From: Iphione sp. A-MEVVRFRX5
Taxonomy: Eukaryota
DNA length: 64,000 nucleotides
Assembly (NCBI GenBank): GCA_976226885.1
Contig: OZ320313.1
Span: forward strand, 156,364,001 to 156,428,000
Reading direction: 5' to 3'
The stretch's first letter is position 1. Each line of letters begins with the position of its first letter. Positions 48,076 to 64,000 of the stretch are shown here, one piece after another. A program made the translations under genes and the position numbers. The notes below the pieces were generated by a model, which did no database searches, had not been told where the DNA came from, and saw only the letters and a list, made by a program, of their open reading frames with translations.

Positions 48076-48336
48076 TGTAGCGTTTCCCATTACGTAATAA
48101 AGACATGACCAAGGTTGTGAACAATGAAGGTTTATTCCAGAGATGTGAACACTACGGCGACTCAGCCTAGACTGACTCCCTCCTCCCTAGCAGCCCCTTA
48201 TATACCCTACCCAGGGGCAGGGGGGGGGTGGTGGGGAGTGCAGCACTCCGCACCCCCGGCGCGTCCTAGTGCAGCACTCCGCATGCAGCACTCAGCACCG
48301 GGGTTGCCTCCTGGTGCCGCACTCCGCAGCACCACA
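48076..48336 (-). repeat. Element 1 3' LTR
   Basis: Appears identical by eye to 56925-57185. On the minus strand: TATATAAG (48204-48197), AATAAA (48136-48131), and four TGC[AC]GCACTC[CA]GCA copies (as read on the plus strand) in U3. Confidence 0.99.
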
Positions 48337-48348
48337 CTGCCCCCTCCC
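48337..48348 (-). other. Polypurine tract GGGAGGGGGCAG
   Basis: Directly abuts the TG of the 3' LTR. Confidence 0.9.
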
Positions 48349-48445
48349 GAAACGAAACTTTGTCCCCAAAGTTCTAACATACTTCAACATCGGAACAGTC
48401 CAACCGTAACCTGGAACAGTCAACAAGGCACAGGTGATCCACAGC

Positions 48446-51163
48446 TCATCGTAGGGACACTGTCCACACCTCCTTCAGGTTGGCGACAACACAGTCGCCG
48501 TCGCGGGACTGGTCCCAGGTGGTCAACCTGCGCATGGCAGTGCCCCTAGTGAGGTTCTCAAACCTCCGTGCGTGCCAGCGCATTAGCTCGGCTGAGCCTA
48601 GCTGATCCGGTCCCCTCGGCCGGAAACGAATACTCTGGTTGAGGGTCAGCTTCACCTGATTTCCCCCCAACGCCTGGACTTCCGATCTCCCTGATGCTCG
48701 TACGATCTCCCAGCCCTCGGGAGGTGCGGACTGGCAAGAGACGAAGCGTACTCCGGTTTCTTCTGGCGAGGGGGGGGAGATGTCCTGGTAAGACCAATAT
48801 TGCGTGGGGGACCGAACGCCCGACGGCAGCCACGGCTGTCCAGCCCCTCGTCCCAGGCCCGGCGACGACAAGGGGAGTACTCGCGCCGTAGGGGATATGG
48901 CTCCTCGCGCCAGGTTCGGAAGGGACGCCCGTCTCTGCAAACGGGGGCCTGGGGGTGTCCAGCGTGGGGGCGCGTCCCCGGAGGGACCGGGCCGTAGGGG
49001 GCGGTCGACGAGGGCCTCCACGTTCACACTGTGCACCCGTAGCGGTCCTCGGGGCGGTGGCACCGCGCCGGCCCCAGGGACAACTGGCGGTGCCAGCTCC
49101 ACGTTGAAATCCCTGGGAGGAGGCTCGTGGTCGGGCGCCACCCCGGGTCCTTCCTCGTCGGTATGGGGTGGCCTTGGAGAGCCGGGGGCCGGCTCGAGTT
49201 GCCCCGTCTCATCCTCACGGTCAACAGGTGGCGGCACTCCCGGTCGCTCTCCAGCTACACCTGGTCGTGGCGGCTCGACGACATTGGTGTCCACGTTCCC
49301 TTCGCCAGTCCCCAGTCCGGCCGTGGTAGACGGGTTCGCTGCGGGGGGTGTGCGTAGAGGGGCCACCGGACCGACTTCCTCCGATGGTGCCGGTGATGCA
49401 CTTCCGGTCCCCTTCTCCTCCCGGTCCGGAGCCCTGGGTGGGGGACCCGCTGGACGTGCCGGCGGACCCGTTGCGGAGGGGCCAAGTGAAGAGGAAGTAG
49501 GCCCGGCCTCCTCCTGGTGGACTGCCAAGGGTCTGCCGACCCCCACCCCTGCGTCGCTGGAGACGTCCTGAGGCTCGGTATCCTCCTCAATCGGCGTGAG
49601 CCCGCGGCCCAGCCCCCCCGGTGGGGTCAACGCGGAAGTACCGCCCTGGTCCGACGGCGAGGTGGTCGGTCGGTCCGCTGGAAGCCTTGGAGGCGGCGGG
49701 GTGGATGTGTCGTCCCGACCTGACGTACTGTGCTGGGAGAGGCTGGCCAGGGTAACTGCGGCCTCCTCCTCTAAGTCTGGAAGTTCATCGGAACTGATGT
49801 CATCGACCCAGAAGGAGGTGCCCAGGGTCTCGGCAAACACTCTCCTTATGGGGCTGATGTCAAGCGCATCGCCCTTCTTGGTGGAAGACCCTGGTGTCGA
49901 GGGGGAGGGCGCTGCCGTATCTCCTCCGGGGGTTATCTCGCCTTCCATGGGGCGGGTCTCGCTCCCCGGTCGCTTCCGGGGGAGGGGAGGGGAGTCCTCC
50001 GGCGAATCTGAGATGACCACCGGTTGGGACGGCGAGGCCTCCTTCGACCAGCCTGGTCCAAGGCGGCGGTCTAGCTCTTCCTCTGTGTCAGTGGCCGACC
50101 CACGACCCAGCTTGAGCGGCGGCTGCCCTGGCCGCGACGACTTAGATGGGGGAGCCTTCCCCTTTCCTTTTCCGTGCGACTTCGTCGTGGCGGGTCCCTT
50201 GCCCTTACTTGCCCCGGCACGGCCTTGATGACGTGTTGCTGCTCGTCCTCTGCCCGGCGAATATACGGCATAGGGGGGTTGGGCCGTCGGTCCAGGGGAG
50301 GGGTGCGCCGGGGTGGCCTGTTCCTCCTCGTCTTCTTCGACCCTCGACTGGGGGGGGGTGAACAGCTGCCGCCCTCCAGACCCCTGGTCAGCTGGTAGGT
50401 TGATCCCCTTTGGGGTTGGGACCAGGGGGAGGGCCCGCGCGCACGTGGTCGGACGTTCCTTAGGGGCCCTGGCGTAGGTCCGTGGCCGCATCCTCTCTGG
50501 CGGTGAGGCAGACCCTCCGCTGGTTCCGGCCCGGCTGCCTGGCGATGGTCCGGCCTCGGAGGTTGATCCATGCGCCGGCGTCTCGGACTGAGAATCCGCC
50601 GACCCGGCTGACGCGGAAGTAGGCGGCCCCTTGCTGCCCGCGGAGCTGCTGGGGGTTGCTGGGGCAGAGCGGTCGGTGCCGAGTCGGCGACGTGCCCGGC
50701 GGGCTGGTGGGCGCGATGGTCGAGGGGGTGCTTCCTCTCCCGACTCGGCGTCCTCGTCCGAGGACTCAACGACCTCTGCCCTGAGATCCTTGGTTCTTGC
50801 GGTGGCCTCGCGACGGCGCCGCCTGGCCAGCTCTGTCAGCTTGTCTGCAGGGCACTCGATGGCGACCCCACGGGTGGGGTTGAACCCCGAGAATCGCACA
50901 TAACCGATGTCCACTGTCTGTGTCATCTGGAGGGATCGGTGTACCCCCAGAAGGTGCCGTTTCCAGTCCGTTCGTCTGCGGAAGGCGGTGTTCTTGCAGG
51001 TTTGGACGGGGCAAATCCAGCCGAACCCCTTAGGGCTGTGCACTTGCTCCATATGGCGTCGTAAATTTTGCCTCTGCTGGAAACCAGTATCGCACAGATG
51101 ACATGCGAATGGAGCTGTGGCAAGGGGTACTTCCCCGGAGGCAGATGGGGTCTGGTCGGTCAT
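48446..51163 (-). CDS. ORF3-like module (905 aa from MTDQT): two C2H2 fingers, ~700-aa Pro/Ser/Gly/Ala-rich region, ~120-aa ordered C-terminus; in frame with pol
   Basis: FACHLCDTGFQQRQNLRRHMEQVH and CPVQTCKNTAFRRRTDWKRHLLGVH at 51109-50939. The ATG is preceded by the acceptor ttgcttgtttgtcccctgcAG|GA. Confidence 0.8.
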   Translation of the reverse strand: MTDQTPSASGEVPLATAPFACHLCDTGFQQRQNLRRHMEQVHSPKGFGWICPVQTCKNTAFRRRTDWKRHLLGVHRSLQMTQTVDIGYVRFSGFNPTRGVAIECPADKLTELARRRRREATARTKDLRAEVVESSDEDAESGEEAPPRPSRPPARRARRRLGTDRSAPATPSSSAGSKGPPTSASAGSADSQSETPAHGSTSEAGPSPGSRAGTSGGSASPPERMRPRTYARAPKERPTTCARALPLVPTPKGINLPADQGSGGRQLFTPPQSRVEEDEEEQATPAHPSPGPTAQPPYAVYSPGRGRAATRHQGRAGASKGKGPATTKSHGKGKGKAPPSKSSRPGQPPLKLGRGSATDTEEELDRRLGPGWSKEASPSQPVVISDSPEDSPPLPRKRPGSETRPMEGEITPGGDTAAPSPSTPGSSTKKGDALDISPIRRVFAETLGTSFWVDDISSDELPDLEEEAAVTLASLSQHSTSGRDDTSTPPPPRLPADRPTTSPSDQGGTSALTPPGGLGRGLTPIEEDTEPQDVSSDAGVGVGRPLAVHQEEAGPTSSSLGPSATGPPARPAGPPPRAPDREEKGTGSASPAPSEEVGPVAPLRTPPAANPSTTAGLGTGEGNVDTNVVEPPRPGVAGERPGVPPPVDREDETGQLEPAPGSPRPPHTDEEGPGVAPDHEPPPRDFNVELAPPVVPGAGAVPPPRGPLRVHSVNVEALVDRPLRPGPSGDAPPRWTPPGPRLQRRASLPNLARGAISPTARVLPLSSPGLGRGAGQPWLPSGVRSPTQYWSYQDISPPSPEETGVRFVSCQSAPPEGWEIVRASGRSEVQALGGNQVKLTLNQSIRFRPRGPDQLGSAELMRWHARRFENLTRGTAMRRLTTWDQSRDGDCVVANLKEVWTVSLR

Positions 51164-54100
51164 TCCTGCAGGGGACAAACAAGCAACAGTATAAGTCGGG
51201 GCTTCATACAAAGCAGGTGCGGCATGAACGATTGAACTCCGCAGCGGCGTAGCAAGTGCCGCTGCGGCTTTAAGGTGGCGCTGCGGCGGGTCACTACCAG
51301 AACTCCGCTGCACTTTTTTACCATGTACTAAATGCGGCGAATTATCACTCAACTGTCGCTGTTGCGGCCCCCTATCGTGCGGCGAATCAGAACTCCGCTG
51401 CACTCGTGGCGAACTATCGCTAATACTCCGCTGCCGATGTTTACTTGCTGCTGCGGCGTGCGATCCCCGATTATCGCCCAATTGCCAAGGCGGCCTAGAG
51501 GTGAAATCATGCCTTACCTCCGCTGTAAGTTTTCCTGCGCAACGTAGGGGTGGTGCTGCGACTAATCTTGTTGTTTTCGCTCTTGCCGATTCGTGCCAGA
51601 TGGAGTTGACGATGAAACTTGGTGTAACTGCTGCGGCGGCCTTTTCACGCTGCGCACTCCATGGGTTGTCAGGGACGCTGGGCCGAGCGTCTCGGTCGAC
51701 CGCGGCGCCCCCTATCATGAGTGCGGAGTTCCCCCACGTGTTGCGGAGTTTTGACTTTGACTCCACAGCGGCGGTTGCCCCTACTCTGGCCTCCGCAGCG
51801 GCCGATTTTGACTTCTCCGTGGCCACTGTTGCGACGTCCTCGGTTATCGCCGGCTTGAGGCGATCTGCATGCACAACCTTCCTTCGCGCACCTCTCCCTA
51901 TTCGATAGACAACTGCGGACAGTCTCTCCTCCACCTGCCACGGACCTTCCCACCAGCTCTGGAACTTGGGAGATACGCCCTTTTTTTTTAGTGGGGTGAA
52001 AAGCCACACTTTCTGTCCCACCACGTACTCCTGGGGGCGCACCTTCTGGTTATACCAGTCCTGCCACAACTCCGCTGCCTTATTCAGCTTGCAAGCGACC
52101 CACTGGTGGGCTTCCCGGACTTCTCCTTCCACCTGCTGCGCATACTCGCCTCTTTCCATGGTTGGTCCTTCAGGGTACCCGTAACGGAGCTCGGCTGGGG
52201 TAGCAACCTCCCGATGCAGGGTCAGCCAGTTAGGGGACACGCCCGTGGTGCTGTGGGGGGTGGCCCGATATGTAGCCATGACGAAGGGGAGGGCCAAGTC
52301 CCAGTCGGCCTGCCTCTCTTCTCCCAGGGTGGCTAGCATGCTGGCGAGCGTCCTATTGAAACGCTCCACCACTCCGTCGGCTTGGGGGTGGTATGGTGTG
52401 GTCCTGGATTTCTCGATCCCCAGCAATCGTAGCACCTCCGCGAAGAGTTCGGCTTCAAAATTCCGCCCCTGGTCGGAGTGCAAGGCTCTAGGAGGCCCGA
52501 AACAGCACACCACTTCCCTGACAATCACTTCGGCGGTTGCCCGAGCTGTGATTTCCGCCAGTGGGAACGCTTCTGTCCATTTAGAAAAGTGGTCCGCCAC
52601 TACTAGAATGTAATGGTGTCCCCGCTCCGTGCGCGGGAGTGGCCCTAGGACGTCGGCTGCTACCAGTTCCCAAGGCTCGCTGACTTTCCGGTACTGTAGC
52701 GGTGCCCTCTTGTTGCGGTATGGCCCCTTCCTACGCTGGCACGCCTGACAAGCTTGTGTCCAGCGCAGGACGTCCCGCCGGAGTCCAGGCCAGAACCACT
52801 TAGTCCTAAGAGCGGCTCCGGTCTTCTCCGCTCCCAGGTGGCCACTCAACACCCCTTCATGAGCCTCTTGCCAAACCTGTTTCCGTAGACTCCTCGGCAC
52901 GTATGCCTGATACACCAGTCGCGAGGGCTCTTCCTGCCAACACCGCATCAACACCCCACGCCGGAGGCTTAACCGTCTCGCCTCAGCGCGCAGCTGGCGC
53001 TCTTCCCAGGACAACCCGGGTTCGAGTCCGGGGATTTCTCTACCTTCCTCGAGTGCATCTATGATGGCGGCTATGGGCTCCTCCTCCCGCTGGGCGTCCC
53101 GCAGCTGCGGTCGATCTCCAGTTGGGTCCACGGTCACCATGGCCGTGAGCTCCCGCACCGGTTCTTCCCCCTCCTCGTTACGGTGGCACTGTTTACAGCG
53201 CTGGCGAGATAGCCCGTCTGCATTGCCATGTTTCTTTCCGGGTCGGTGGACGATTAGCAGGTCATAGCAGAATATTTCCTCCAGCCACCGCGCCAGCTGC
53301 CCCTGGGGCTCACGGAAATTGCACAGCCAGCGCAAGGAGTCGTGGTCAGTGCGTATCTCCACAGTGTGCCCTCCCACATAACAGCGGAACTTCCGTAATG
53401 CGAACACCACTGCCAACAATTCTCGACGAGTGACACAATAGTTCTTTTCAGGGCGCGTGAGGGTCCGGCTGGCGTACGCCAACACCCTCTCCTGTCCCTC
53501 TTGCTCCTGGGACAGCACCGCACCGATGCCCATATCCGACGCGTCCGTGTCGATCAAGAGTCGTCCTTCTGGTTTCGGGAACCCCAGGATGGGTGCCGTC
53601 ACCAGCCGTTCCTTCAACTCCTCGAAGGCCAATTGGCACTGCTCTGACCACGCGAACTCGGCGTGCCGATCGGCCAGTGCGTGTAGTGGTGCTGCTATCC
53701 TCGCGAAGCCCTCCACGAAATTTCGGTAATACGAGCAGAGGCCCAGGAACCCGCGCAGCTCCTCTTGGCAACGAGGCACAGCCCATTCCGCCACCGCCGC
53801 TATCTTGGCCGGGTCTACTCCGACCCCCGCGGCGGACACCCGGTGCCCGAGGTAAGCCACCTCCCGTCGGAACAGCTGGCACTTCGAAGCTTTCACATGC
53901 AACCCGGCCTGCCGGAGCCGCTGGAACACCATTCCTAGGCGCTGGCACATCTGCTGCACCGAGTTACCCAGCACGATAACGTCGTCGAGGTAGACGAGAC
54001 ACTCCATGCCGACAAGCCCTCGCAACACTGACTCCATCAACCTTTCGAATGTGGACGGGGCATTGCACAGTCCAAAAGGCATAACTCTAAACTGGTAAAG

Positions 54101-55531
54101 CCCTCTGGGTGTGCACACTGCGGTCTTCTCTGCATCGCGTGGATCCATGCGTACCTGCCAGTATCCACTGGCCAAATCCAAAGCTGAGAAAAACCGGCTT
54201 CCTTGCAAGGCGTCAAGGGTGTCGTCGATTCTGGGGATAGGATAAGCGTCCTTCTTCGTCACCGCATTCAACCGTCGGTAATCCACGCAGAACCTGGTCC
54301 CCCCATCCTTCTTCCTCACTAGGACCAGGGGCGAGGCCCACGGGCTAGTAGAGGGCTCTAGGACTCCGCGTTCTACCATGGAATCTACCTCCTGCTCGAG
54401 CTCTGCCCGCTTCTGTGGAGGGAGACGCCGCACCCGCTGACGAATGGGCGGGTGCCCCTGGGTGTTTATCCGGTGTTGCACATCAGGAGCACAACCGAGG
54501 GGCCCACTGGGGGTTTGGAACACCCCCTTGTACTCTTCCAGCAAAACACGTACCATCCGCCGTTCCTCTGTGGAGAGGTCGTCTGGAAGGCTCTCCAGCA
54601 GTTGTCCCACCGCCTCCGACTGCTCACCCTCAACGGTTGAGTTGGCTCCAACCTGAATAGGGTCCACCTCCTCCACCGGATGGGCCCGCCCCACGTGGGT
54701 TCCGCCGTGGATGTACGCCTCTTGTGCACCCGGGTTCCATACTGGCACCAGCAGCTTCCGCTCAGTGGGACACACCACTGCCTGTGCTACCCGGAGACCT
54801 GAGCATTCTTCGAACCATAGATTACCCTCGGTCAGCACCCCCGCGGGTTCTCCGAGTGTCGGTGCCCAGGCGGCCGTCACCCAGCCTAACTGTCCCGCTG
54901 CGATGCGGTGGTCCCCTCGGGCCGCCAGCAATACGGCGCCGTCCCCCACAGGGGCAGCCAGAGTTACCTGCGCCCGCACGGTATCCACTGTCGCTTCCCA
55001 GGCGTCCAGCCAGTCAAGTCCCAGGATCGCCAGCACCTCCATGTCGACCACTCGAGCCCTGACGGGTACCCATGTGTCCCCGAAGTGTACTTGACTGGCG
55101 ACCGTCCCTCTCACAAGTAACGGGGCCCCATCCACGCCGAACACCCGGGCGTCTATGGGGCCCAAGGCCACACCCTGCAGATTGTCGAAGACTCGGCTTG
55201 AGAGTAGTGAGGCTGATGCTCCCGTGTCCACCAGCCAGTCAAAAGTGCAGCCACCCATCCTTCCGGACAGTAGCAACCCACTGCACCCTTGACGTCGGCG
55301 TCCCTGAAGGACCACACCGCCCGTGGTGGCCCCTGCTAGCGCTCGCAGGTGTTCAGGCGGTGGCGAACCGCTGCGGGCTGGGACCTCTACTCTTGGTGAC
55401 TCTACCGCCCGCCCCTCTAGGCTCGGGCGGGCGGTCCCCCGTTTCCCGGCTCCGCGGTGGGCGCGGCGGCGGCATTGGCGCTCGGGGGTGCAGTACCAGC
55501 CTCCGCCGCCAACCGTGCTGGACACTCCCAC
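48446..55531 (-). CDS. pol: Pol polyprotein (protease, RT, RNase H, integrase) with a C-terminal extension of over 1100 aa
   Basis: VDTGAS protease (~55220); YLDD (53981-53992); DTDASD RNase H (~53540); H-X6-H...CQAC and D..D..E integrase; EGPW...HADRLKP end (~51851); then open to the stop at 48446. Confidence 0.98.
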   Translation of the reverse strand: MGVSSTVGGGGWYCTPERQCRRRAHRGAGKRGTARPSLEGRAVESPRVEVPARSGSPPPEHLRALAGATTGGVVLQGRRRQGCSGLLLSGRMGGCTFDWLVDTGASASLLSSRVFDNLQGVALGPIDARVFGVDGAPLLVRGTVASQVHFGDTWVPVRARVVDMEVLAILGLDWLDAWEATVDTVRAQVTLAAPVGDGAVLLAARGDHRIAAGQLGWVTAAWAPTLGEPAGVLTEGNLWFEECSGLRVAQAVVCPTERKLLVPVWNPGAQEAYIHGGTHVGRAHPVEEVDPIQVGANSTVEGEQSEAVGQLLESLPDDLSTEERRMVRVLLEEYKGVFQTPSGPLGCAPDVQHRINTQGHPPIRQRVRRLPPQKRAELEQEVDSMVERGVLEPSTSPWASPLVLVRKKDGGTRFCVDYRRLNAVTKKDAYPIPRIDDTLDALQGSRFFSALDLASGYWQVRMDPRDAEKTAVCTPRGLYQFRVMPFGLCNAPSTFERLMESVLRGLVGMECLVYLDDVIVLGNSVQQMCQRLGMVFQRLRQAGLHVKASKCQLFRREVAYLGHRVSAAGVGVDPAKIAAVAEWAVPRCQEELRGFLGLCSYYRNFVEGFARIAAPLHALADRHAEFAWSEQCQLAFEELKERLVTAPILGFPKPEGRLLIDTDASDMGIGAVLSQEQEGQERVLAYASRTLTRPEKNYCVTRRELLAVVFALRKFRCYVGGHTVEIRTDHDSLRWLCNFREPQGQLARWLEEIFCYDLLIVHRPGKKHGNADGLSRQRCKQCHRNEEGEEPVRELTAMVTVDPTGDRPQLRDAQREEEPIAAIIDALEEGREIPGLEPGLSWEERQLRAEARRLSLRRGVLMRCWQEEPSRLVYQAYVPRSLRKQVWQEAHEGVLSGHLGAEKTGAALRTKWFWPGLRRDVLRWTQACQACQRRKGPYRNKRAPLQYRKVSEPWELVAADVLGPLPRTERGHHYILVVADHFSKWTEAFPLAEITARATAEVIVREVVCCFGPPRALHSDQGRNFEAELFAEVLRLLGIEKSRTTPYHPQADGVVERFNRTLASMLATLGEERQADWDLALPFVMATYRATPHSTTGVSPNWLTLHREVATPAELRYGYPEGPTMERGEYAQQVEGEVREAHQWVACKLNKAAELWQDWYNQKVRPQEYVVGQKVWLFTPLKKKGVSPKFQSWWEGPWQVEERLSAVVYRIGRGARRKVVHADRLKPAITEDVATVATEKSKSAAAEARVGATAAVESKSKLRNTWGNSALMIGGAAVDRDARPSVPDNPWSAQREKAAAAVTPSFIVNSIWHESARAKTTRLVAAPPLRCAGKLTAEVRHDFTSRPPWQLGDNRGSHAAAASKHRQRSISDSSPRVQRSSDSPHDRGPQQRQLSDNSPHLVHGKKVQRSSGSDPPQRHLKAAAALATPLRSSIVHAAPALYEAPTYTVACLSPAGMTDQTPSASGEVPLATAPFACHLCDTGFQQRQNLRRHMEQVHSPKGFGWICPVQTCKNTAFRRRTDWKRHLLGVHRSLQMTQTVDIGYVRFSGFNPTRGVAIECPADKLTELARRRRREATARTKDLRAEVVESSDEDAESGEEAPPRPSRPPARRARRRLGTDRSAPATPSSSAGSKGPPTSASAGSADSQSETPAHGSTSEAGPSPGSRAGTSGGSASPPERMRPRTYARAPKERPTTCARALPLVPTPKGINLPADQGSGGRQLFTPPQSRVEEDEEEQATPAHPSPGPTAQPPYAVYSPGRGRAATRHQGRAGASKGKGPATTKSHGKGKGKAPPSKSSRPGQPPLKLGRGSATDTEEELDRRLGPGWSKEASPSQPVVISDSPEDSPPLPRKRPGSETRPMEGEITPGGDTAAPSPSTPGSSTKKGDALDISPIRRVFAETLGTSFWVDDISSDELPDLEEEAAVTLASLSQHSTSGRDDTSTPPPPRLPADRPTTSPSDQGGTSALTPPGGLGRGLTPIEEDTEPQDVSSDAGVGVGRPLAVHQEEAGPTSSSLGPSATGPPARPAGPPPRAPDREEKGTGSASPAPSEEVGPVAPLRTPPAANPSTTAGLGTGEGNVDTNVVEPPRPGVAGERPGVPPPVDREDETGQLEPAPGSPRPPHTDEEGPGVAPDHEPPPRDFNVELAPPVVPGAGAVPPPRGPLRVHSVNVEALVDRPLRPGPSGDAPPRWTPPGPRLQRRASLPNLARGAISPTARVLPLSSPGLGRGAGQPWLPSGVRSPTQYWSYQDISPPSPEETGVRFVSCQSAPPEGWEIVRASGRSEVQALGGNQVKLTLNQSIRFRPRGPDQLGSAELMRWHARRFENLTRGTAMRRLTTWDQSRDGDCVVANLKEVWTVSLR
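55404..55447 (-). promoter_or_regulatory. -1 ribosomal frameshift signal: G GGA AAC, 5-nt spacer, 11-bp hairpin
   Basis: Heptamer at 55447-55441 is in the gag frame, and -1 puts it in the pol frame (GKRGTARP). Stem ACCGCCCGCCC/GGGCGGGCGGT with a 10-nt loop. The same heptamer is used by PEG10. Confidence 0.9.
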
Positions 55532-56829
55532 TTGAAATGTCCCTGTTCATGGCAGTAGAAACAGGCTCCTTCTGAGGTTCGGCGACGGTTCCGGCGACCA
55601 GCCGCGGCCGGGGGCTGTTCTACTAGCTTGAGAAGCAACTGCTCCACGCACTCCCATGCGGCTGGAGCCGGTGCCGGTGCGGAGCGACTAGCGGCCACAG
55701 ACTCCCCTTCCTCCGCGCGCACGGCGTGGACCCTAGTGGCTGACCCTGACCCGGAACGCTCCTTCTCCGCACGGTGGAAGGATTCTGCCAGCAACGCCTC
55801 CAACACCGCGGATTGAAACGAGCGGGCCTTAGCCTGGACCACCCAGCGCCGGCTCCGTTCCTCTCTCAGAGCCGACACGAAGGCATCCCGGCACATGCGG
55901 TCCAGCCAGGGTCCCTCGGCCTCCGGGTAGGCTTGTCGTACCAAACGTTTGACGTCTTCAGCTAGATTCTGAGCATCTTCATCCTTCCCCTGCCGCCGCT
56001 GTTTGAGCTCTTGCTCATAAAAGGTGGCACGGTCGGCCGATTGGAAGCGATTCCTCAACGCCTCCACAATTCGATCATAAGCGCCCTCGGCTGCGACATC
56101 AATTCCGGCGGTGCGGAGAGCTGACTGTGCCGACTTGCGCAGGCAGACACTCAGTTGCAGCGCTTGTTCCACCCGGTCCCACCGGTTGGCTTGGGCCACG
56201 AGACCAAAGTGGTGCAAGTACTCGGCGAGGGGCACGGACCCATCAAATGCCTCCGGCTTTACATGGAACTTTCGCGCTGGGGTGACAGATGTAGGGGCTG
56301 CCGCTGACCGCAGCGCCTCTTGGAGGCCGGATACCAGGCTTCGCACCAGCTGGCCGCGTTCATCATCTGCCTCGGCTCGAATGGAACTGGGGAGCGTCGT
56401 CGCTGAGCGGGGGGTACTGCCGGCACTACTGGATGGTCCTGTCCCCGTCTGTGGCCCGTCCGGGTGGGGTGGCGGCGTCGCAGGTGGTGGGGTAACGTTC
56501 CGTGGCACACCCTCCTGCCCTGCAGAGGGGGGCGCGGCGGCGCCCCGCGGCTCGGTGGACACTGGTGAAGCTCCCCTGGGGGTAGACTGTGGCGTATCCT
56601 TAGGCCGTGCGGGGTGCGGCTGCGGCTGTGCGGGGTGCGGCTGCGGCTGCGGCTGTGCGGGGTGCGGCTGCGGCTGTGCGGGGTGCAGCTGCGGCTGCGG
56701 CTGCGGCTGTGCGGGGTGCGGCTGCGGCTGTGCGGGGTGCGGCTGCGGCTGCGGAGTGCGGCCCAGTTGGACTTCGTCGTCTGAGCTGGCAGGCTCCTCA
56801 CTGTCCCACTGATCGGAGTCTCCGGACAC
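55417..56829 (-). CDS. gag: Gag (capsid-like domain plus CCHC zinc knuckle); listed start is GTG
   Basis: KPEAFDG...YLHHF...W motif, CFYCHEQGHFKWEC knuckle, N-terminal PQPHPAQ repeats. Confidence 0.95.
   Translation of the reverse strand: MSGDSDQWDSEEPASSDDEVQLGRTPQPQPHPAQPQPHPAQPQPQPQLHPAQPQPHPAQPQPQPHPAQPQPHPARPKDTPQSTPRGASPVSTEPRGAAAPPSAGQEGVPRNVTPPPATPPPHPDGPQTGTGPSSSAGSTPRSATTLPSSIRAEADDERGQLVRSLVSGLQEALRSAAAPTSVTPARKFHVKPEAFDGSVPLAEYLHHFGLVAQANRWDRVEQALQLSVCLRKSAQSALRTAGIDVAAEGAYDRIVEALRNRFQSADRATFYEQELKQRRQGKDEDAQNLAEDVKRLVRQAYPEAEGPWLDRMCRDAFVSALREERSRRWVVQAKARSFQSAVLEALLAESFHRAEKERSGSGSATRVHAVRAEEGESVAASRSAPAPAPAAWECVEQLLLKLVEQPPAAAGRRNRRRTSEGACFYCHEQGHFKWECPARLAAEAGTAPPSANAAAAPTAEPGNGGPPARA
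56606..56762. repeat. Frame-preserving GC-rich tandem repeat in gag (21-nt unit plus 6-nt subunits)
   Basis: tgtgcggggtgcggc(tgcggc)n; encodes PQPHPAQ in the gag frame and SRSRTPH in the overlapping frame. Confidence 0.95.
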
Positions 56830-56905
56830 ATCAGGCGCCCCTGCCGGCCATCACCCGCGTCCCCTTCCTGTTGGCTGACCTCGGCCATGTCCAGCGGCGG
56901 GCGAG

Positions 56906-56923
56906 ATCCCACCGCTGCCACCA
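56906..56923 (-). other. Primer-binding site TGGTGGCAGCGGTGGGAT (tRNA-Leu)
   Basis: 1 nt from the 5' LTR; complementary to the eukaryotic tRNA-Leu(AAG/TAG) 3' end ATCCCACCGCTGCCA-CCA. Confidence 0.9.
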
Positions 56924-56924
56924 A

Positions 56925-57185
56925 TGTAGCGTTTCCCATTACGTAATAAAGACATGACCAAGGTTGTGAACAATGAAGGTTTATTCCAGAGATGTGAACA
57001 CTACGGCGACTCAGCCTAGACTGACTCCCTCCTCCCTAGCAGCCCCTTATATACCCTACCCAGGGGCAGGGGGGGGGTGGTGGGGAGTGCAGCACTCCGC
57101 ACCCCCGGCGCGTCCTAGTGCAGCACTCCGCATGCAGCACTCAGCACCGGGGTTGCCTCCTGGTGCCGCACTCCGCAGCACCACA
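56925..57185 (-). repeat. Element 1 5' LTR
   Basis: Direct repeat of 48076-48336. Confidence 0.99.
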
Positions 57186-59689
57186 ATAGTACAGAACCTG
57201 ACCCTACTTTCCCTTCAGTAGGTTCCCCAGGCCATAGTACTATTTGGCTAGTTGATAAATTTTTAAATAAATTAGAGACTTCTTGCAAAATGTAAGCGTC
57301 AGAATGTTTGCTATTATCTCATCTCTTCACAGAGTTTATATGTACTGGTATACTACATTTCTTTGTAAATGTGTGTTGGAATAAAACATTTTATCTTTAC
57401 AAGATTCTACTTGTGCTATAACAATACTCAAACATTATTGAAAAGGTAGCCCTAAATACATCACATTTACGAGTATTTCATCAGTATATTGTTAAGATCG
57501 TGTCACGATTATTATATGATCCTCTCTGCTTAAGAAAAAAAATTGATTTTCTCTATGAATCATTATGAAATCTTTGTATGTAAGGGGAGAGAAATGAACA
57601 AATGATTATCTCTGGAAATGCATACGCAGGGCCTCATGTACAGCTGTATGTTTTTCATAATCGTTGTCTGACGTTTTGCTTTTTTTCTAAGCTTGCGTTT
57701 CTTTGGATTGTAATACCATTCTAAATTTTAAAACCAGGTCAGTTCTTGTTTTTACAGTGCTGCACTTGATGTGTTGTACACATAGTTTTGCAGCTAGATT
57801 CATATATTGTCAAGTAAGCGGGTGAAAGGCATTTGGACCTTTCACACATATTGTTTTATTTATCTGCAGCGTTTCCTTTTGTGGACTGACTCAAACATAA
57901 TAGCGCACAGTAGCTTCATGTTCTGCTGTTTCCCCACAGGCTTTGTTACTGTGTCCCTTATCTAGAGCTTTCGACTCGTCCTTTTCTTTCTATTTTGTCT
58001 GTATCTGTTGTATTGTATTTATGAGAATACTTTTTTCTGTTATCAATTTTTGTTCTCGCGTTATTCTCTTGCTTCTAAAACTTCTTCATGTGAGCTGCGA
58101 CTTTAAGCTTAATCTCCTCTTCTCTTTTCTAAAAATCTATCCAATGGATATTTCACCGAAAACAATAAAATGTTTTGCTTGGAATACAATATGGCAGGCT
58201 TTGCTCCGATCAAAATGAATAGTTTCATGACGAAGTTGGGGGGAAAACATAAAATATTCTCTTGTAACGGTGTTTTCAATTGCTCCGTGATTGGTCTTCA
58301 AGTTCACATTTATAGATCTTTTACTGTTCGTGATTAGGTTCCAGTTATGAATGCTACTGTTGAGCAATTCAAAAATGTAAAATGTTTATATCTCGTTTTT
58401 AACAATAAACATAAGGGAACAAAGATAATGATCACTGTTGTTGTAACAAAAATTGTTTTGGAAACGATATAACTCTCCTCTAGGTGTCATTCATAATGCA
58501 TGTACAAGGATTTCGACGCAGAGGTCTGATGATTCAGCAATTACGTCGTCTGAAATGGAGAATACACAGTAGCTACGATTATGTCACCTGTAGGAGTAAC
58601 AATACTTTATAGTACCCTGCAGTGAATGTTTGCAGCAAGCAAGATGTGGAACACACAGACTCGAATGCATGAGCCACTTGTACCTAATGATGAACAGCTT
58701 TGCCGACGCACTTGAAGGAAGGCCCTTCAAACTACTTGAGGTACAGATGTAATCATATATACATAACTGTATGTTTGGAAACGCTAGATCGTTTAGGAAC
58801 ATTATAGAGGCCGAAGCAGCAAAATGATAGCTGCAATCGTGAAGTTAACATGTGTTTGACTGGCTTCAGTGAAGCTGCCGACGTTCTCTGCAAAACTGAA
58901 AGGGAGCACCATGCATACATACATTAAGAATGTCTGAGATTTTTTGTATATATATCAGGCCAGTATTTTGCCAGTGGGCATGTCTACAGTCAAAAGGAGA
59001 TTTCTGCTATTGGAGATTGTAGAAGAGCCTGTCCGTCCATACTGAATAATATTTTTTTTTTCGCAATAGTGACGAGTCCAAAGAACAGATCTTAAAATTT
59101 CCGTACCGTCGTCTGTTTGGGGCCTCGTGATACGTCTATTGGCTCTACAATGTTTGCCACAGCGTAACCAGCTTCAATGTAGGAGATGGACACTCTAACA
59201 TCCTCCAAAAAGGATCAACACAGAGTTTCCCATTTGCCAGAGGTAGCAGCCTCCTGTACAGTATATATTGGGTCCTAAATAATGCATATACTTCTAATTC
59301 ATACTGAGAACACTGTGACTTCATCGACTATATTACGGCCTATAAGGATCCCATGGAGATGAGTTATTGAGGTATCCAGAGTGCCATTCATAGAACTGAC
59401 ACATATACATGGTTAATGAATCAGTTAAGGTCACCACGTTAAGCAAGACCATGTCCAACATTTATTCGGGAGAATATTTAGCTCAGCTTATTTAGAGTAA
59501 TGTGCAACTGGTTGTCGGGATATATTCTGACGAATTGAGGTATTTCTATTCACATTCCCCTGGATTGGGAGATTGGGGAAGCATGGGCTCTCAGAATGTA
59601 GTCTATATGTCGTCAGTTGAATTAAAGTTAAATCCCTAGATAAGTGTTTTCTTTTTCTTAGGCTGGTATAATCCCATATACCATGGTAT

Positions 59690-60124
59690 TGTAACGTGAC
59701 TAACGTAGAGAGAAATGACAAGTCAACGGACCGAGCAAAAATAATCTTGAGAAAAAGTAGAATATAAGTTTCACTCCAATATACACTAATTCGTTGTGCA
59801 TGGAATGGTCTCTCTCGTATGTGCAAAGAGAAAGGGTCTGTTTATTCCAGAAAACATGGGTTTATATATGACAGTGTTACATAAGAGTTGCTAAAAATAG
59901 GATGTCTAGACACCTGCATATGCGCAGCAAATAAACAGTCCGCGAAGTACCCCAACTACGCAGCACCACAATCCGTGAGATACCTCTACTACGCAATACC
60001 TCTATTGGTCCGGAAGTCGTCACGGATCGCACCCTATCCCGGATCGCGGATTCCGTTGCGGACTATTCTCACGGACCGACCTTCTCTCTAGCACTATACA
60101 CTCTTATGACATGCCTACGTTACA
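59690..60124 (-). repeat. Element 2 3' LTR (435 bp)
   Basis: Terminal inverted repeat TGTAACGT...ACGTTACA. On the minus strand: CCAAT (60008-60004), TATATAAA (59868-59861), AATAAA (59846-59841). Confidence 0.85.
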
Positions 60125-60138
60125 TTCTCCCCTTCTTT
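60125..60138 (-). other. Polypurine tract AAAGAAGGGGAGAA
   Basis: Immediately precedes TGTAAC of the LTR. Confidence 0.85.
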
Positions 60139-60868
60139 AAGAGGGAAACTTATTCGCTTTTTACTGAAATATCTTAAATTATGAGTATTACTTTTTATCT
60201 TATTCTCTATATAAATGATTTTTCGGGTACGAGATGTACTTCTCGTCTAAAAAAGTTTTTCTTTGGACTATTCGAAGTCCTTACGGATTATCTATAATCT
60301 TATCTTTCTTTCTGTTTCGATTACTGGAAAGGTGAAACAAGATTCTATAGATAAAATTCGATATACTTTATTCTTTCTCCTTAAGGGAGTTAAAATATAT
60401 TTTTCTTTTCTTTTGAACACATGGCATCTCAACATACATCAATACAATCTTCACGGATCATGTCAAGAAAATAAAAGATATGGAAACGGATCGACCTTTC
60501 ACGAACTCGTTACTTAGTGGTCTGGTAAAACTGAAATTCGAAATAATGTCTTTTTGTATCATCACAGTTCGTCTTTTACCTTGAAAAAGGCATTCATAAA
60601 TAGTAATATCAAAAATATGCGAGCAATATTCATAGTAAAATCATCATGCGCTTCCGGTTTAGTTCTTTTTCGCGCGGAAAGTCATTTCCGGTTCAGTTCT
60701 TGCGCTACTGTCACGTTGTTGGACTATACTTTTTGGGACGATAAATTATGGATTAAGATCTCTGAAAAGGAATTACAAACAGCATTTGGCATTCACAAAT
60801 AATCAAGGACGGCATTAGGCATGAATGGACTAGAAATTATCACTACTTTAGTCCTTCTCAACTGGATT

Positions 60869-62422
60869 TCACTCGCGGGGCGCCCAAGTGCCCCACGTAT
60901 GCGTGTCGAGGACGGGGTGCGTCTCCTCCCGGATCCTCGCCTGCAACGTGTTGTCTTGCCGTCGTCTGGTGTCTCGAGCAAGGACCAGCTGACCCTCTAT
61001 GTTCGTGGGCGACATCCCTTGAAACGCAGCTTGGACTTGAAGAGTGGAGATCTGGTCGACAGTAATGTTGTGCCTCTGGAACTCAGAATTGTCGCGCCAG
61101 AATTCAGGGTTGGAGGGCTTTCTTGCACCGGGCAGTATCAGGTAGGGCCGGTCCCGCAACGGACCGAACGGATCGCCAGGTGCCAGCACTCCATCCTTTA
61201 TGGCCTCCATCGTTGCTGCCGACAGAGACACCAGATACTTTTGCTCAGGTGTGAGCACGTCCCAGTTGACTGGCGGCCATGTGATGTCGACCCTCAGAGG
61301 TACCGGATTCTGAGGAGCCGTCCTGGCCGTTCCACTAAATGGGTATACCGTCCCATCAGCTACTTCAGTCAGCCACCGGTTGAAAGCCGAACCGGACTCG
61401 TTGTCTGGTCGAGGTCGCTCTGGTGGTGGAATCGCCTTCTGTCCCGTCTTTTCTTTCTTCTTGCCCTTGCTTGCTATCACCTTGCCGCCTACGGATTTCC
61501 TCGCAGTGTTCCTCGGTGGTTGCGGCTGCTGAGGAGGCTGGAACTGCACGTCCTCCTCAATCTGTTTGTCCCGTCTGCGTAGCATCCGTTTCCCGCTGGC
61601 TTGATCTTGCTGCTCCAGTCTCTGCTCGTCAGAACTGGTAGTCTGCTCGACATGATCGTCCTCTGTAGCCGTTCCCGTCTCGTCTCGATCTTGCTTTTTC
61701 CCAGCCTCGATCCCCTCTTCCAAGATACCAGAAGAGATCTCGACTAGAGTTTTAGGAGCGTCCGCAATCAGCTTCTCCACTTCCTCGTCCATGGATGGGG
61801 TAGTGCTTATCATGCTGATATCACTAATACCGCTAATGTTCAAATGTTCAGGCAAATCCGTCACACACTCTTCTGTCGGCTTTTGAAGTTTCTTGACCGG
61901 CAGATCAATCGATTCCTCTGGTAATCGACGTTTCTTGGGTGGGAGTGTGGGTTCTGGGGTGACTTCAGTGGAACTCGGCCGTGACGGTTCCTCAGCCTTG
62001 CTCCCGGACGACCCCGGATCACCAGCTACTTCAGGGGATACCATCACTGCACGCCCTTTCAGTGAGACGATCTCCCCTCCTCGCTGTCTCCAAGCACGGA
62101 CCAGGTTCCGCGCTTCGATGGCTGGCTCAGACTCGCTGTCAAAATCATCCGGAATGTCCCAGCGAAAGTTGTTAAGCGCGAAGAGGTGGTGAAACTTCTT
62201 CGCGAGGAAGTAATTCTGGCTTGCATGCCGGCTTCGTACATGATCCGTCCAGGATTTTAACTCGTGAGCGCACTTCTTGCCTGGACACCACGGACAGATC
62301 ATCTTCAGTAATCGTCCACTCTTAGTCATCCCGTGCACTTTAGCTTGATGCTTGTTAAGGGCGCTCTGCCCTTTTACTGTGAGTTGACACTGATCACATG
62401 TGAGGAGCGGAGGATTTGCCAT
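60869..62422 (-). CDS. 517-aa tandem C2H2 zinc-finger protein (ORF3-like): two fingers, acidic/basic disordered middle, ordered C-terminal domain
   Basis: CDQC-x12-H-x4-H and CPWC-x14-H-x4-H at 62398-62225; ATG start; basic patches (PPKKRR, KGKKKEK) that could act as NLS. Confidence 0.85.
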   Translation of the reverse strand: MANPPLLTCDQCQLTVKGQSALNKHQAKVHGMTKSGRLLKMICPWCPGKKCAHELKSWTDHVRSRHASQNYFLAKKFHHLFALNNFRWDIPDDFDSESEPAIEARNLVRAWRQRGGEIVSLKGRAVMVSPEVAGDPGSSGSKAEEPSRPSSTEVTPEPTLPPKKRRLPEESIDLPVKKLQKPTEECVTDLPEHLNISGISDISMISTTPSMDEEVEKLIADAPKTLVEISSGILEEGIEAGKKQDRDETGTATEDDHVEQTTSSDEQRLEQQDQASGKRMLRRRDKQIEEDVQFQPPQQPQPPRNTARKSVGGKVIASKGKKKEKTGQKAIPPPERPRPDNESGSAFNRWLTEVADGTVYPFSGTARTAPQNPVPLRVDITWPPVNWDVLTPEQKYLVSLSAATMEAIKDGVLAPGDPFGPLRDRPYLILPGARKPSNPEFWRDNSEFQRHNITVDQISTLQVQAAFQGMSPTNIEGQLVLARDTRRRQDNTLQARIREETHPVLDTHTWGTWAPRE

Positions 62423-62644
62423 CTTGTCTGCTTGCCTGTCTTCGAAGAACAGACTGAGACACCGAGGATGACGAAATAATATACTGTGCCGTGACGTATG
62501 CCGGGACGGATCACGCGAGATGGTCCCGGCGCGGGCAATTCAAACTTTTGCCGCGGCGCCCCCCATGCCGGGTAACATTATGCAACTTCAGGTAACACCC
62601 TTATCGTGTCAAGTTTCATTGCACATTTCGGATCCCAGAATTCA

Positions 62645-62652
62645 TATAAAAG
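62645..62652 (+). promoter_or_regulatory. TATA box TATAAAAG of the antisense gene
   Basis: Consensus match ~150 nt upstream of the GTGAGT donor at 62799. Confidence 0.55.
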
Positions 62653-62796: not shown

Positions 62797-63825
62797 ATGT
62801 GAGTATGGTTTTTCTTCTCGTTTCCTATTTCTTTTTCAGGTTTTTATATATGAGTGATACCTGTTCATTTTATCCTGTAATTTCTTCTTCAAATTTAGAC
62901 TTATTTCCGTCCGTTTTTTTTTTTTTGTAGGGCTTCTCCTCTTCGAAGCATTATTGCTACCCTGACAGACTCAGGTATCATAGTCTGCTATAGGGGTCCC
63001 ACTTTACAGATGCATCGTCTATTGGGCCCAGAAATCCAAGTGAACTGGGTGGATGCCGGAATGTCCATTTCAGCACGAACACACAGATCAGGTGTTCCAG
63101 ATCGGAGTCCACCCCTCACGTTCACGATTCCTGAGATGACAGTCCGTCCCATTCGACGCGAGGGTGCCTTGATGGTTACAGTAGTGGGAAGGCGAGGTTT
63201 ACCTGAGGCCAGGCAGACGTATCTTCTGGCTCCAGAAGATATTGTGCTCGAGGGGAGGGTATATACCCTCTCTCTCCACTGTTGCCTGCTGCCGCCTATT
63301 CATGTCATTGACCACAACAACAATACTCCACCTCCTTCTCCCAACGAGAATGAGGCTGTAGCTGCTAATGCAGGAGTGGTTTCAGCAGTTCCACCCCCTC
63401 GGAGAATTCAACTCCACGACAACGGATCCTTTATCATATGGGTTCCGACCATGTATGATAATCTGGGGAGGGAGATGTTGTCGCTGCCCCCTCCTAATGA
63501 AAATTCCGTTTTCACTATTCTTCATCCGGCGGACCCTCAGGCTCAGCCAGGGGCCCCAGGGGAGGATGATATTGTTAATATGGACCTAATGTCTCCACAA
63601 GACTGCTTCGACAGGGTTCATCCGGACGGACCAGAAGCATACAATGCCCTTCTTACTCTGGCCAATGCGCTGCCACCGTCACCCTCAGCTGTTCTGGACG
63701 CATCTCTAGAGACGATTCCTGAGGTTGAATTCCACGGTCCGGCGCCAACCGTCACCATAGATCCTGAAGACCCACTTGAGGCTGTGGAGTCTTCAGTTCC
63801 ATCGTCTACTGGCTTGACAAGGTAG
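62797..63825 (+). CDS. Spliced antisense gene of unknown function, join(62797..62798,62931..63825), 298 aa
   Basis: Donor AT|GTGAGT, 132-nt intron, T-run acceptor ttttttttgtAG|G. Splicing gives aggATGG. The frame is open from 62932 into the 271-aa ORF 63010-63825. Confidence 0.7.
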
Positions 63826-64000
63826 AATTCTGCAGAGGGTGATCAGACCTCTTTTCTTTTCTGCTTTATCAAATTCTTCATCCAACGTGGTAACGTTTCA
63901 CCTCTATATTCAAAAATTCGATTCCTGTGCACTAATACCTTCTGTCCGGATTTAGTCTTCTGTAATATATGTCTTCCTAGATCCAATTGTTTAACATGTA

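Follow-up and report, generated by a model that had tools for sequence, protein, structure and literature searches.

A divergent gene cassette with a selected C2H2 zinc-finger gene in a recently inserted Ty3/Gypsy retrotransposon family of Iphione sp.

The analysed window, a stretch of 64,000 nucleotides from the genome of Iphione sp. A-MEVVRFRX5, includes the 3' part of an LTR retrotransposon, termed element 2, that carries the divergent genes ORF3 and ORF4 between pol and the 3' LTR. The identification of ORF4, which encodes a zinc-finger protein, as a real and selected accessory gene of an LTR element is supported by the comparison of its genomic copies. With respect to its function, the sequence features lead us to propose, at a probability of roughly 45%, that ORF4 may be a cell-cycle-driven nuclear activator or anti-silencer of its own element. 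The features on which the analysis is based are compiled in Table 1.

Table 1. Features of element 2, its accessory genes and element 1 (positions refer to the window, residues to the ORF4 protein)
Feature	Position	Strand	Description
Element 1	48076..57185	-	identical repeats of 261 bp; gag; pol, continued in frame by a tail of two fingers, disordered region and C-terminal domain
Element 2 target-site duplication	59686..59689	-	4 bp
Element 2 3' LTR	59690..60124	-	435 bp, TG...CA ends
Element 2 polypurine tract (PPT)	60125..60138	-	
ORF4	60869..62422	-	517-aa protein
ORF4, N-terminal part	residues 1-115		two C2H2 fingers plus helix
ORF4, middle part			disordered; basic cluster at 163-166; conserved acidic-hydrophobic motif at about 194-221
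ORF4, C-terminal domain	residues 346-517		helical
Palindrome	62531..62554	-	E2F-like/CHR-like: GC-rich arm, TTTGAA, GC-rich arm
TATA box	62645..62651	+	faces ORF3; aligned in families A and B
ORF3 intron (predicted)	62799..62930	+	132 nt, GT-AG; splits start codon AT / G
ORF3 coding exon	62931..63825	+	297 codons after split start; frame 62932-63825
Element 2 pol 3' end	63843..64000	-	integrase C-terminus; gag, pol and 5' LTR continue past the window

Element 2 and the zinc-finger gene ORF4

Element 2 is a complete Ty3/Gypsy LTR retrotransposon of 9,418 bp, the 5' part of which is located in the neighbouring genome stretches. A matching 5' LTR, for which a search beyond the window had been proposed in an earlier sequence-only reading of this DNA, is present there and 100% identical to the 3' LTR, so that ORF4 is bracketed by the two repeats. 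The element carries a PBS, which from its reading we take to be that of tRNA-Leu, as well as gag and an overlapping pol of 1,100 aa with the order protease-RT-RNase H-integrase, whose best match among solved structures was Ty3 (Ty3 Gag-Pol, E 1.6e-119). A 23-mer within ORF4 yielded 971 exact matches in the genome and its reversed control none, and the family of element 2, designated family A, comprises about a thousand copies in the host animal genome. The LTR pairs of the 34 copies with both LTRs (34 of 40) are 98.1-100% alike, which indicates that several family A subfamilies inserted recently. Consideration of ORF4 as a host gene or an unrelated insertion was ruled out by the matching LTRs, the target duplication and the 971 matches of the 23-mer. 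At the other end of the element, another open frame, 327 codons long, overlaps with the beginning of gag (L021:8602-9585); most copies of family A retain it, and a similar form exists in the sister family B described below.

The sequence-only reading had described a stand-alone ORF of 517 aa upstream of a PPT and 3' LTR, the spacing of finger 1 (C9-x2-C12-x12-H25-x4-H30 in ORF4) and AG dinucleotides at 62455 and 62437, all of which are present. Its placement of ORF4 upstream of the PPT and LTR was likewise correct, but the gene does not directly follow pol, as the antisense gene ORF3, which had been overlooked, intervenes. Finger 2 has the spacing C43-x2-C46-x14-H61-x4-H66, and the eight ligand residues of the two fingers show no variation or a conservation of at least 90% among 19 relatives, all of which also contain basic clusters. 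The C2H2 ligands are accompanied by a beta-beta-alpha fold in the predicted structure; the finger matches are weak, being below the cut-off in Pfam and at an E-value of about 0.5 in Foldseek. Moreover, the helix of finger 2 is acidic and has a Trp at a core position, unlike typical DNA-reading fingers.

The dN/dS analysis suggested in the earlier reading showed purifying selection on ORF4. Variants common to at least two of 40 copies, which were chosen by the 23-mer and compared, unpolarised, with the window copy, gave pN/pS values of 0.17 for gag, 0.07 for pol, 0.15 for ORF4 and 0.06 for ORF3, in comparison with 0.37-0.58 for the singleton variants of the same copies. By region, ORF4 had values of 0.07 (fingers), 0.21 (middle part) and 0.11 (C-terminal domain). 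A 259-aa frame on the opposite strand of ORF4 was rejected as a shadow, with one synonymous versus 19 other changes.

Database searches yielded few relatives of ORF4. In a full HMMER scan, one hit was a real relative and another a generic finger protein. Among 1.84 billion representatives, ORF4 has a sole outside relative, a 450-aa protein encoded on an 8.6-kb contig, with similarity to the fingers as well as to the C-terminal domain. The word-index protein search, in which 8,000 candidates of near length were scored, was empty, and the C-terminal domain found neither a match in Atlas nor a significant one in the fold search (best Z 3.5). Fold searches with the ORF4 domains returned weak matches to C2H2 structures and a set of tied helical hits, histone folds among them (Z 3.0-3.5), and these hits were set aside.

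The suggestion that ORF4 had replaced env was not borne out, as the gene has no env features, a poorly kept splice acceptor and apparently its own promoter. Both a signal peptide and a membrane helix are absent from the protein, and its maximal 19-residue hydropathy is 0.97, compared with 3.04 for a true env protein encoded by another family of this genome. An acceptor-like splice site upstream of ORF4 was found in four of 49 family B copies, and family A contains one weak AG acceptor (11 of 15 pyrimidines), with which expression of ORF4 by splicing from the LTR is compatible. A genuine env-like ORF of 708 aa (Pfam Baculo_F, E 5e-12) was observed in another Gypsy family (L254:6663-8786).

The antisense gene ORF3 and the shared spacer

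The frame of ORF3, which sits between pol and ORF4, does not begin with an ATG; the upstream exon ends with AT and the coding exon starts with G, and splicing is predicted to create the start codon. This arrangement was detected in 54 of 55 family A copies (60 examined) and in 50 of 51 family B copies (52 examined), with an intron that is variable in its body and constant at its ends. Since the start codon is predicted to arise only through splicing, ORF3 would be missed by standard annotation. The N-terminal half of the deduced protein is beta-rich and the protein falls in no known family, the versions of families A and B being 36% identical. An outside relative with 70% identity is located on two short ENA contigs, and none was found in the viral and metagenome contigs searched. 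A beta-propeller-like lead (Atlas, 0.92) was not confirmed by Pfam or PDB, and the single-sequence structure model was unusable (pLDDT 37).

ORF3 and ORF4 diverge from one internal spacer with a TATA box and a palindrome. Judged from the sequence, the TATA box likely belongs to ORF3, and the palindrome is the likely promoter core of ORF4. The palindrome occurs once in element 2 and is common to families A and B, the remaining parts of their spacers being unalignable. By tolerant matching it was detected in all 49 family B promoters at a distance of 63-80 nt upstream of the ORF4 start codon, and it was not found in element 1 or in 28 loci of other families, mostly of the element-1 clade. Its core is present in the variants TTTGAA, TTTAAA, TTCGAA, TTGGAA and TTCAAA; the first three of these are described as the commonest functional CHRs and TTCAAA as an inverse CHR (PMC4176359), and TTGGAA, found in some alleles, is not among the CHRs listed. 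CDE/CHR and E2F/CLE cell-cycle promoters are reported to be bound by DREAM/MuvB (PMC4176359; PMC5716687). As in the CDE/CHR promoters described there, a GC-rich E2F/CDE-like arm adjoins TTTGAA, TTTAAA or TTCGAA near the presumed start, which gives a layout of the CDE/CHR type. The site differs from the mammalian reference sites in being palindromic, in its location within a retrotransposon and in the spacing between the GC arm and TTTGAA, which is ambiguous and not clearly the canonical 4 nt.

A natural deletion bears on the assignment of the palindrome. In 26 of the 30 best copies of one ORF4 allele the TATA box and exon 1 of ORF3 are lost, and ORF3 is broken by stops and frameshifts in 25 of 29 compared copies, whereas the palindrome is kept in all 30 and ORF4 shows dN/dS values of 0.06-0.16, which are biased downward by the choice of these copies according to ORF4 score. 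The haplotype with the dead ORF3 is present in at least 40 copies at 98% identity or more. Loss of ORF3 with retention of the palindrome and ORF4 indicates that ORF3 is dispensable in cis and that the palindrome most likely serves ORF4; together with the occurrence of the palindrome in both families, the deletion thus counts for an internal promoter of ORF4. Additionally, an ETS-like motif, CCGGAA, was noticed downstream of the palindrome in family B and twice in the 3' UTR of family A (positions 60640-60700 of the window).

Allele exchange in family B and the relation to element 1

The use of the 450-aa outside relative as a query exposed a sister family, designated family B, with at least 134 copies, a pol that is 72% identical to that of family A and the same divergent cassette of ORF3 and ORF4. 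Among the 52 of 134 copies that were examined, 29 contain near-full-length ORF3 and ORF4 genes (one with an internal stop), and their ORF4 genes form nine classes that are 40-62% identical to each other, with pS values of about 0.8, corresponding to saturated synonymous sites, and pN values of about 0.3. The integrase, ORF3 and UTR/LTR regions are 93-95% alike both within and between these classes, and different classes ride on backbones that are 99% identical. In permutation tests the ORF4 class had no predictive power for integrase (p 0.15) or ORF3 (p 0.36) and predicted the promoter (p 0.0005) and, slightly, the UTR/LTR (p 0.001). In none of 406 pairs did the N- and C-terminal domains conflict on class, and all nine allele representatives have the same finger-1 helix, N-K-Y-N-x-x-R-H. 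The divergence, the class-concordant domains and the shared backbones show that the ORF4 alleles of family B are old, constrained and recently exchanged as a unit. Allele swapping was not seen in family A, as 20 of 20 copies picked through ORF3 carry one allele, which is 26-32% identical to the full-length alleles of family B. Some family B copies (L125:5790-6277) contain two palindromes that flank a stub of the start of another allele, likely a scar of allele exchange.

In the sequence-only reading, ORF4 and the tail of element 1 had been assigned to one family of zinc-finger genes. The underlying observations held in part. The same layout of two fingers, disordered middle and ordered end recurs in many families, and ORF4 is indeed free in the element-2 clade, in contrast to the tail in frame with pol in the element-1 clade. 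For finger 2 the agreement extends to the two-finger layout but not to the spacing (C-x4-C-x13-H in element 1 versus C-x2-C-x14-H in ORF4). No alignment was obtained between the C-terminal domains of elements 1 and 2 (hhalign probability 2%, HMM scores below 5 bits), in agreement with the earlier observation by eye. The finger pairs align with a probability of 95.5, and in one direction their profile score of 50.0 compares with 37.4-49.4 for 20 host-finger profiles; the finger profile of element 1, in turn, scores host fingers higher (58-74 versus 50.0). As the finger score is hardly above that of host fingers and the C-terminal domains are unmatched, the assignment to one gene family is unproven, and from these sequence comparisons common ancestry of ORF4 and the element 1 tail is possible.

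The element-1 clade is represented by at least 150 matches, down to 42% identity among the matches listed, many of which contain pol and the finger tail in one open frame of 2,400-2,740 aa. Its families are 42-55% identical in the finger region, and the pol proteins of the two clades are 45% identical. In a tree of RT-RNase H-integrase with 14 rows, which sampled families of this genome only, with two outgroups and flagged long branches, both clades were sisters in relation to two other families (support 96/97). Members of the element-1 clade (window 48446-55546, minus strand; L039-L058, L256-L262) have an in-frame linker of 280-620 aa between integrase and finger tail, and finger 1 is usually preceded by a Met at a distance of about 20-38 aa. 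A good splice acceptor is located immediately upstream of that Met in element 1, the window copy of which is short of about 10 residues of the C-terminal domain that are found in close relatives.

Further elements were observed in the same genome. A young Gypsy family (L253:2298-7406; at least 20 near-identical hits) has a pol frame of 1,703 aa that ends in a long tail rich in proline with a small C-terminal domain. A repeated non-LTR unit (L263:4485-9973; L264, L266, L269, L270) contains a frame of roughly 1,290 aa in which three C2H2 fingers and a weak match to endonuclease VII were detected, and a further ORF with a single finger follows; as a guess, the unit is possibly a Polinton-like element. 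Positions 1068-1700 of the window (minus strand) contain an exon that may encode part of a Cys-loop nicotinic acetylcholine receptor subunit.

Proposed role of ORF4 and comparison with known systems

The role of a transactivator or anti-silencing factor, which had been suggested in the sequence-only reading, is retained here as the best proposal. In the proposed mechanism, ORF4 would be transcribed from the internal E2F/CHR-like site and not from the LTR, and cycling cells (germline, stem cells, embryo) would produce it despite a quiet LTR. The basic cluster would bring the protein into the nucleus, DNA would be bound chiefly via finger 1, and the conserved acidic motif together with the C-terminal domain may recruit a host chromatin or transcription factor, leading to more full-length transcription. 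Family B would exchange its old, divergent ORF4 versions through recombination at the promoter and 3' UTR, which are conserved, the most likely reason being that a rare version may escape sequence-specific or protein-specific host defence. The basic clusters, the missing membrane helix and the predicted C2H2 fold were counted for a nuclear regulator, and the atypical finger 2 and the number of only two fingers, which suggest little DNA specificity, against an activator. A virus-like early cassette that would comprise an E2F/DREAM switch, a zinc-finger anti-silencer with a pool of ancient, interchangeable alleles under frequency-dependent selection against host defence, and a dispensable antisense gene with a spliced start appears somewhat unlikely as a whole.

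The retention of a similar tail in frame with integrase across the families of the element-1 clade, along with the sister relationship of the two clades, would also suit a cofactor of integration, with a role in tethering the integration complex to chromatin or in the choice of target sites, the pol fusion of the element-1 clade being the covalent version. Such a role is unlikely, however, considering the promoter-like site of ORF4, the Met that most fused forms retain ahead of finger 1, the unproven homology of ORF4 and the tail, and the flanks of nine copies, a small sample that revealed A/T richness and no further common target motif. An action on RNA or a small-RNA pathway (export, stability or blocking of piRNA silencing) instead of DNA would agree with the atypical finger 2 and with an allele diversity that extends over both ordered domains at a constant finger-1 helix, as might be expected from a protein-level conflict. 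This reading is weakened by Asn at +3 and Arg at +6 of finger 1 in family B, which are typical base-contact residues of the C2H2 code, as well as by the failure of ORF4 to match any RNA-binding domain, and we regard it as distinctly unlikely. The anatomy of an activator is equally that of a self-limiting repressor that damps the element to spare the host, and an antisense partner transcript could restrain the element as well (discussed in PMC7264820). Nevertheless, lineages amplify with ORF4 under selection, including the haplotype with the dead ORF3, and a trans-acting repressor should be easily lost by cheaters, which makes this role very unlikely.

The step of allele exchange has its own alternative, compatible with the promoter, nuclear and recruitment steps, namely that the nine alleles are neutral relics of old families in which template switching put a sweeping backbone in place of the original ones, without selection for diversity. 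The conservation of promoter and 3' UTR provides points for crossover, the permutation tests tie the promoter and, to a weak degree, the UTR/LTR to the allele, and family A has a single allele. On the other hand, repeated double crossovers around one gene would be required, different alleles are found on nearly identical backbones, and the one allele examined did not reveal an older backbone of origin (last 70-90 bases of pol). We consider neutral relics possible, with the odds leaning against them, and retain escape from host defence as the favoured explanation of the exchange.

Foamy virus Tas/Bel1 and other retroviral transactivators are encoded by regulatory genes near the 3' end with an internal promoter, and by analogy ORF4 would most likely work like a transactivator of the Tas/Bel1 type. 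Element 2 is unlike these systems in its lack of env, its Ty3/Gypsy pol and its divergent partner gene, and sequence similarity to Tas/Bel1 was not found. Extra sense and antisense ORFs between pol and the 3' LTR have been described in plant and fungal Ty3/Gypsy elements, for example in maize Grande (gene23), RIRE2, Retand and Boty, and gene23 of Grande is antisense, has its own promoter and encodes a nuclear protein (PMC7264820). According to that account, the cassette of element 2 shares with these additional ORFs the slot between pol and LTR, the pol-like conservation and the missing database relatives. It differs from them in its animal host, in two divergent genes on one spacer with a sense C2H2 gene, and in the intron-split start codon, the E2F/CHR-like site and the allele swapping. 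The cassette is a variant of the known additional-ORF arrangement, and no report of it was found in the literature searched outside Repbase and the subscription journals.

VANC is a tested anti-silencer of the VANDAL DNA transposons of Arabidopsis (PMC6719617; PMC5735166). In terms of these reports, ORF4 resembles VANC as a transposon-encoded accessory protein that is diversified among relatives and proposed to favour its own family. The resemblance is one of proposed role rather than of homology, and ORF4 belongs to a retrotransposon. Furthermore, the specificity of VANC is reported to co-evolve with tandem-repeat targets, whereas the finger-1 helix of ORF4 is constant and the backbone is shared independently of the allele; the promoter and, weakly, the UTR/LTR co-vary with the allele as linkage alone would give. 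Among animals, LTR elements of bdelloid rotifers contain varied and exchangeable third ORFs other than env (PMC5408684) and thus provide a parallel for swappable third ORFs. In the summary of that report the rotifer ORFs are assigned to env, GDSL esterase or DEDDy nuclease, without a zinc-finger regulator or a divergent cassette. The terms 'additional ORF' and 'zinc finger' do not occur in the main text of a survey of mollusc LTR elements (PMC6238403).

Well-supported silencing suppressors encoded by transposons come mainly from plants, as described for VANC (PMC6719617). If the proposed role is true, ORF4 would be a candidate anti-silencer of an animal LTR element in a family that is still amplifying. 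Natural experiments are at hand in the form of nine alleles on one backbone and a subfamily without the partner gene, which make testable both the cell-cycle timing of element activity and the swapping of accessory genes to escape host defence.
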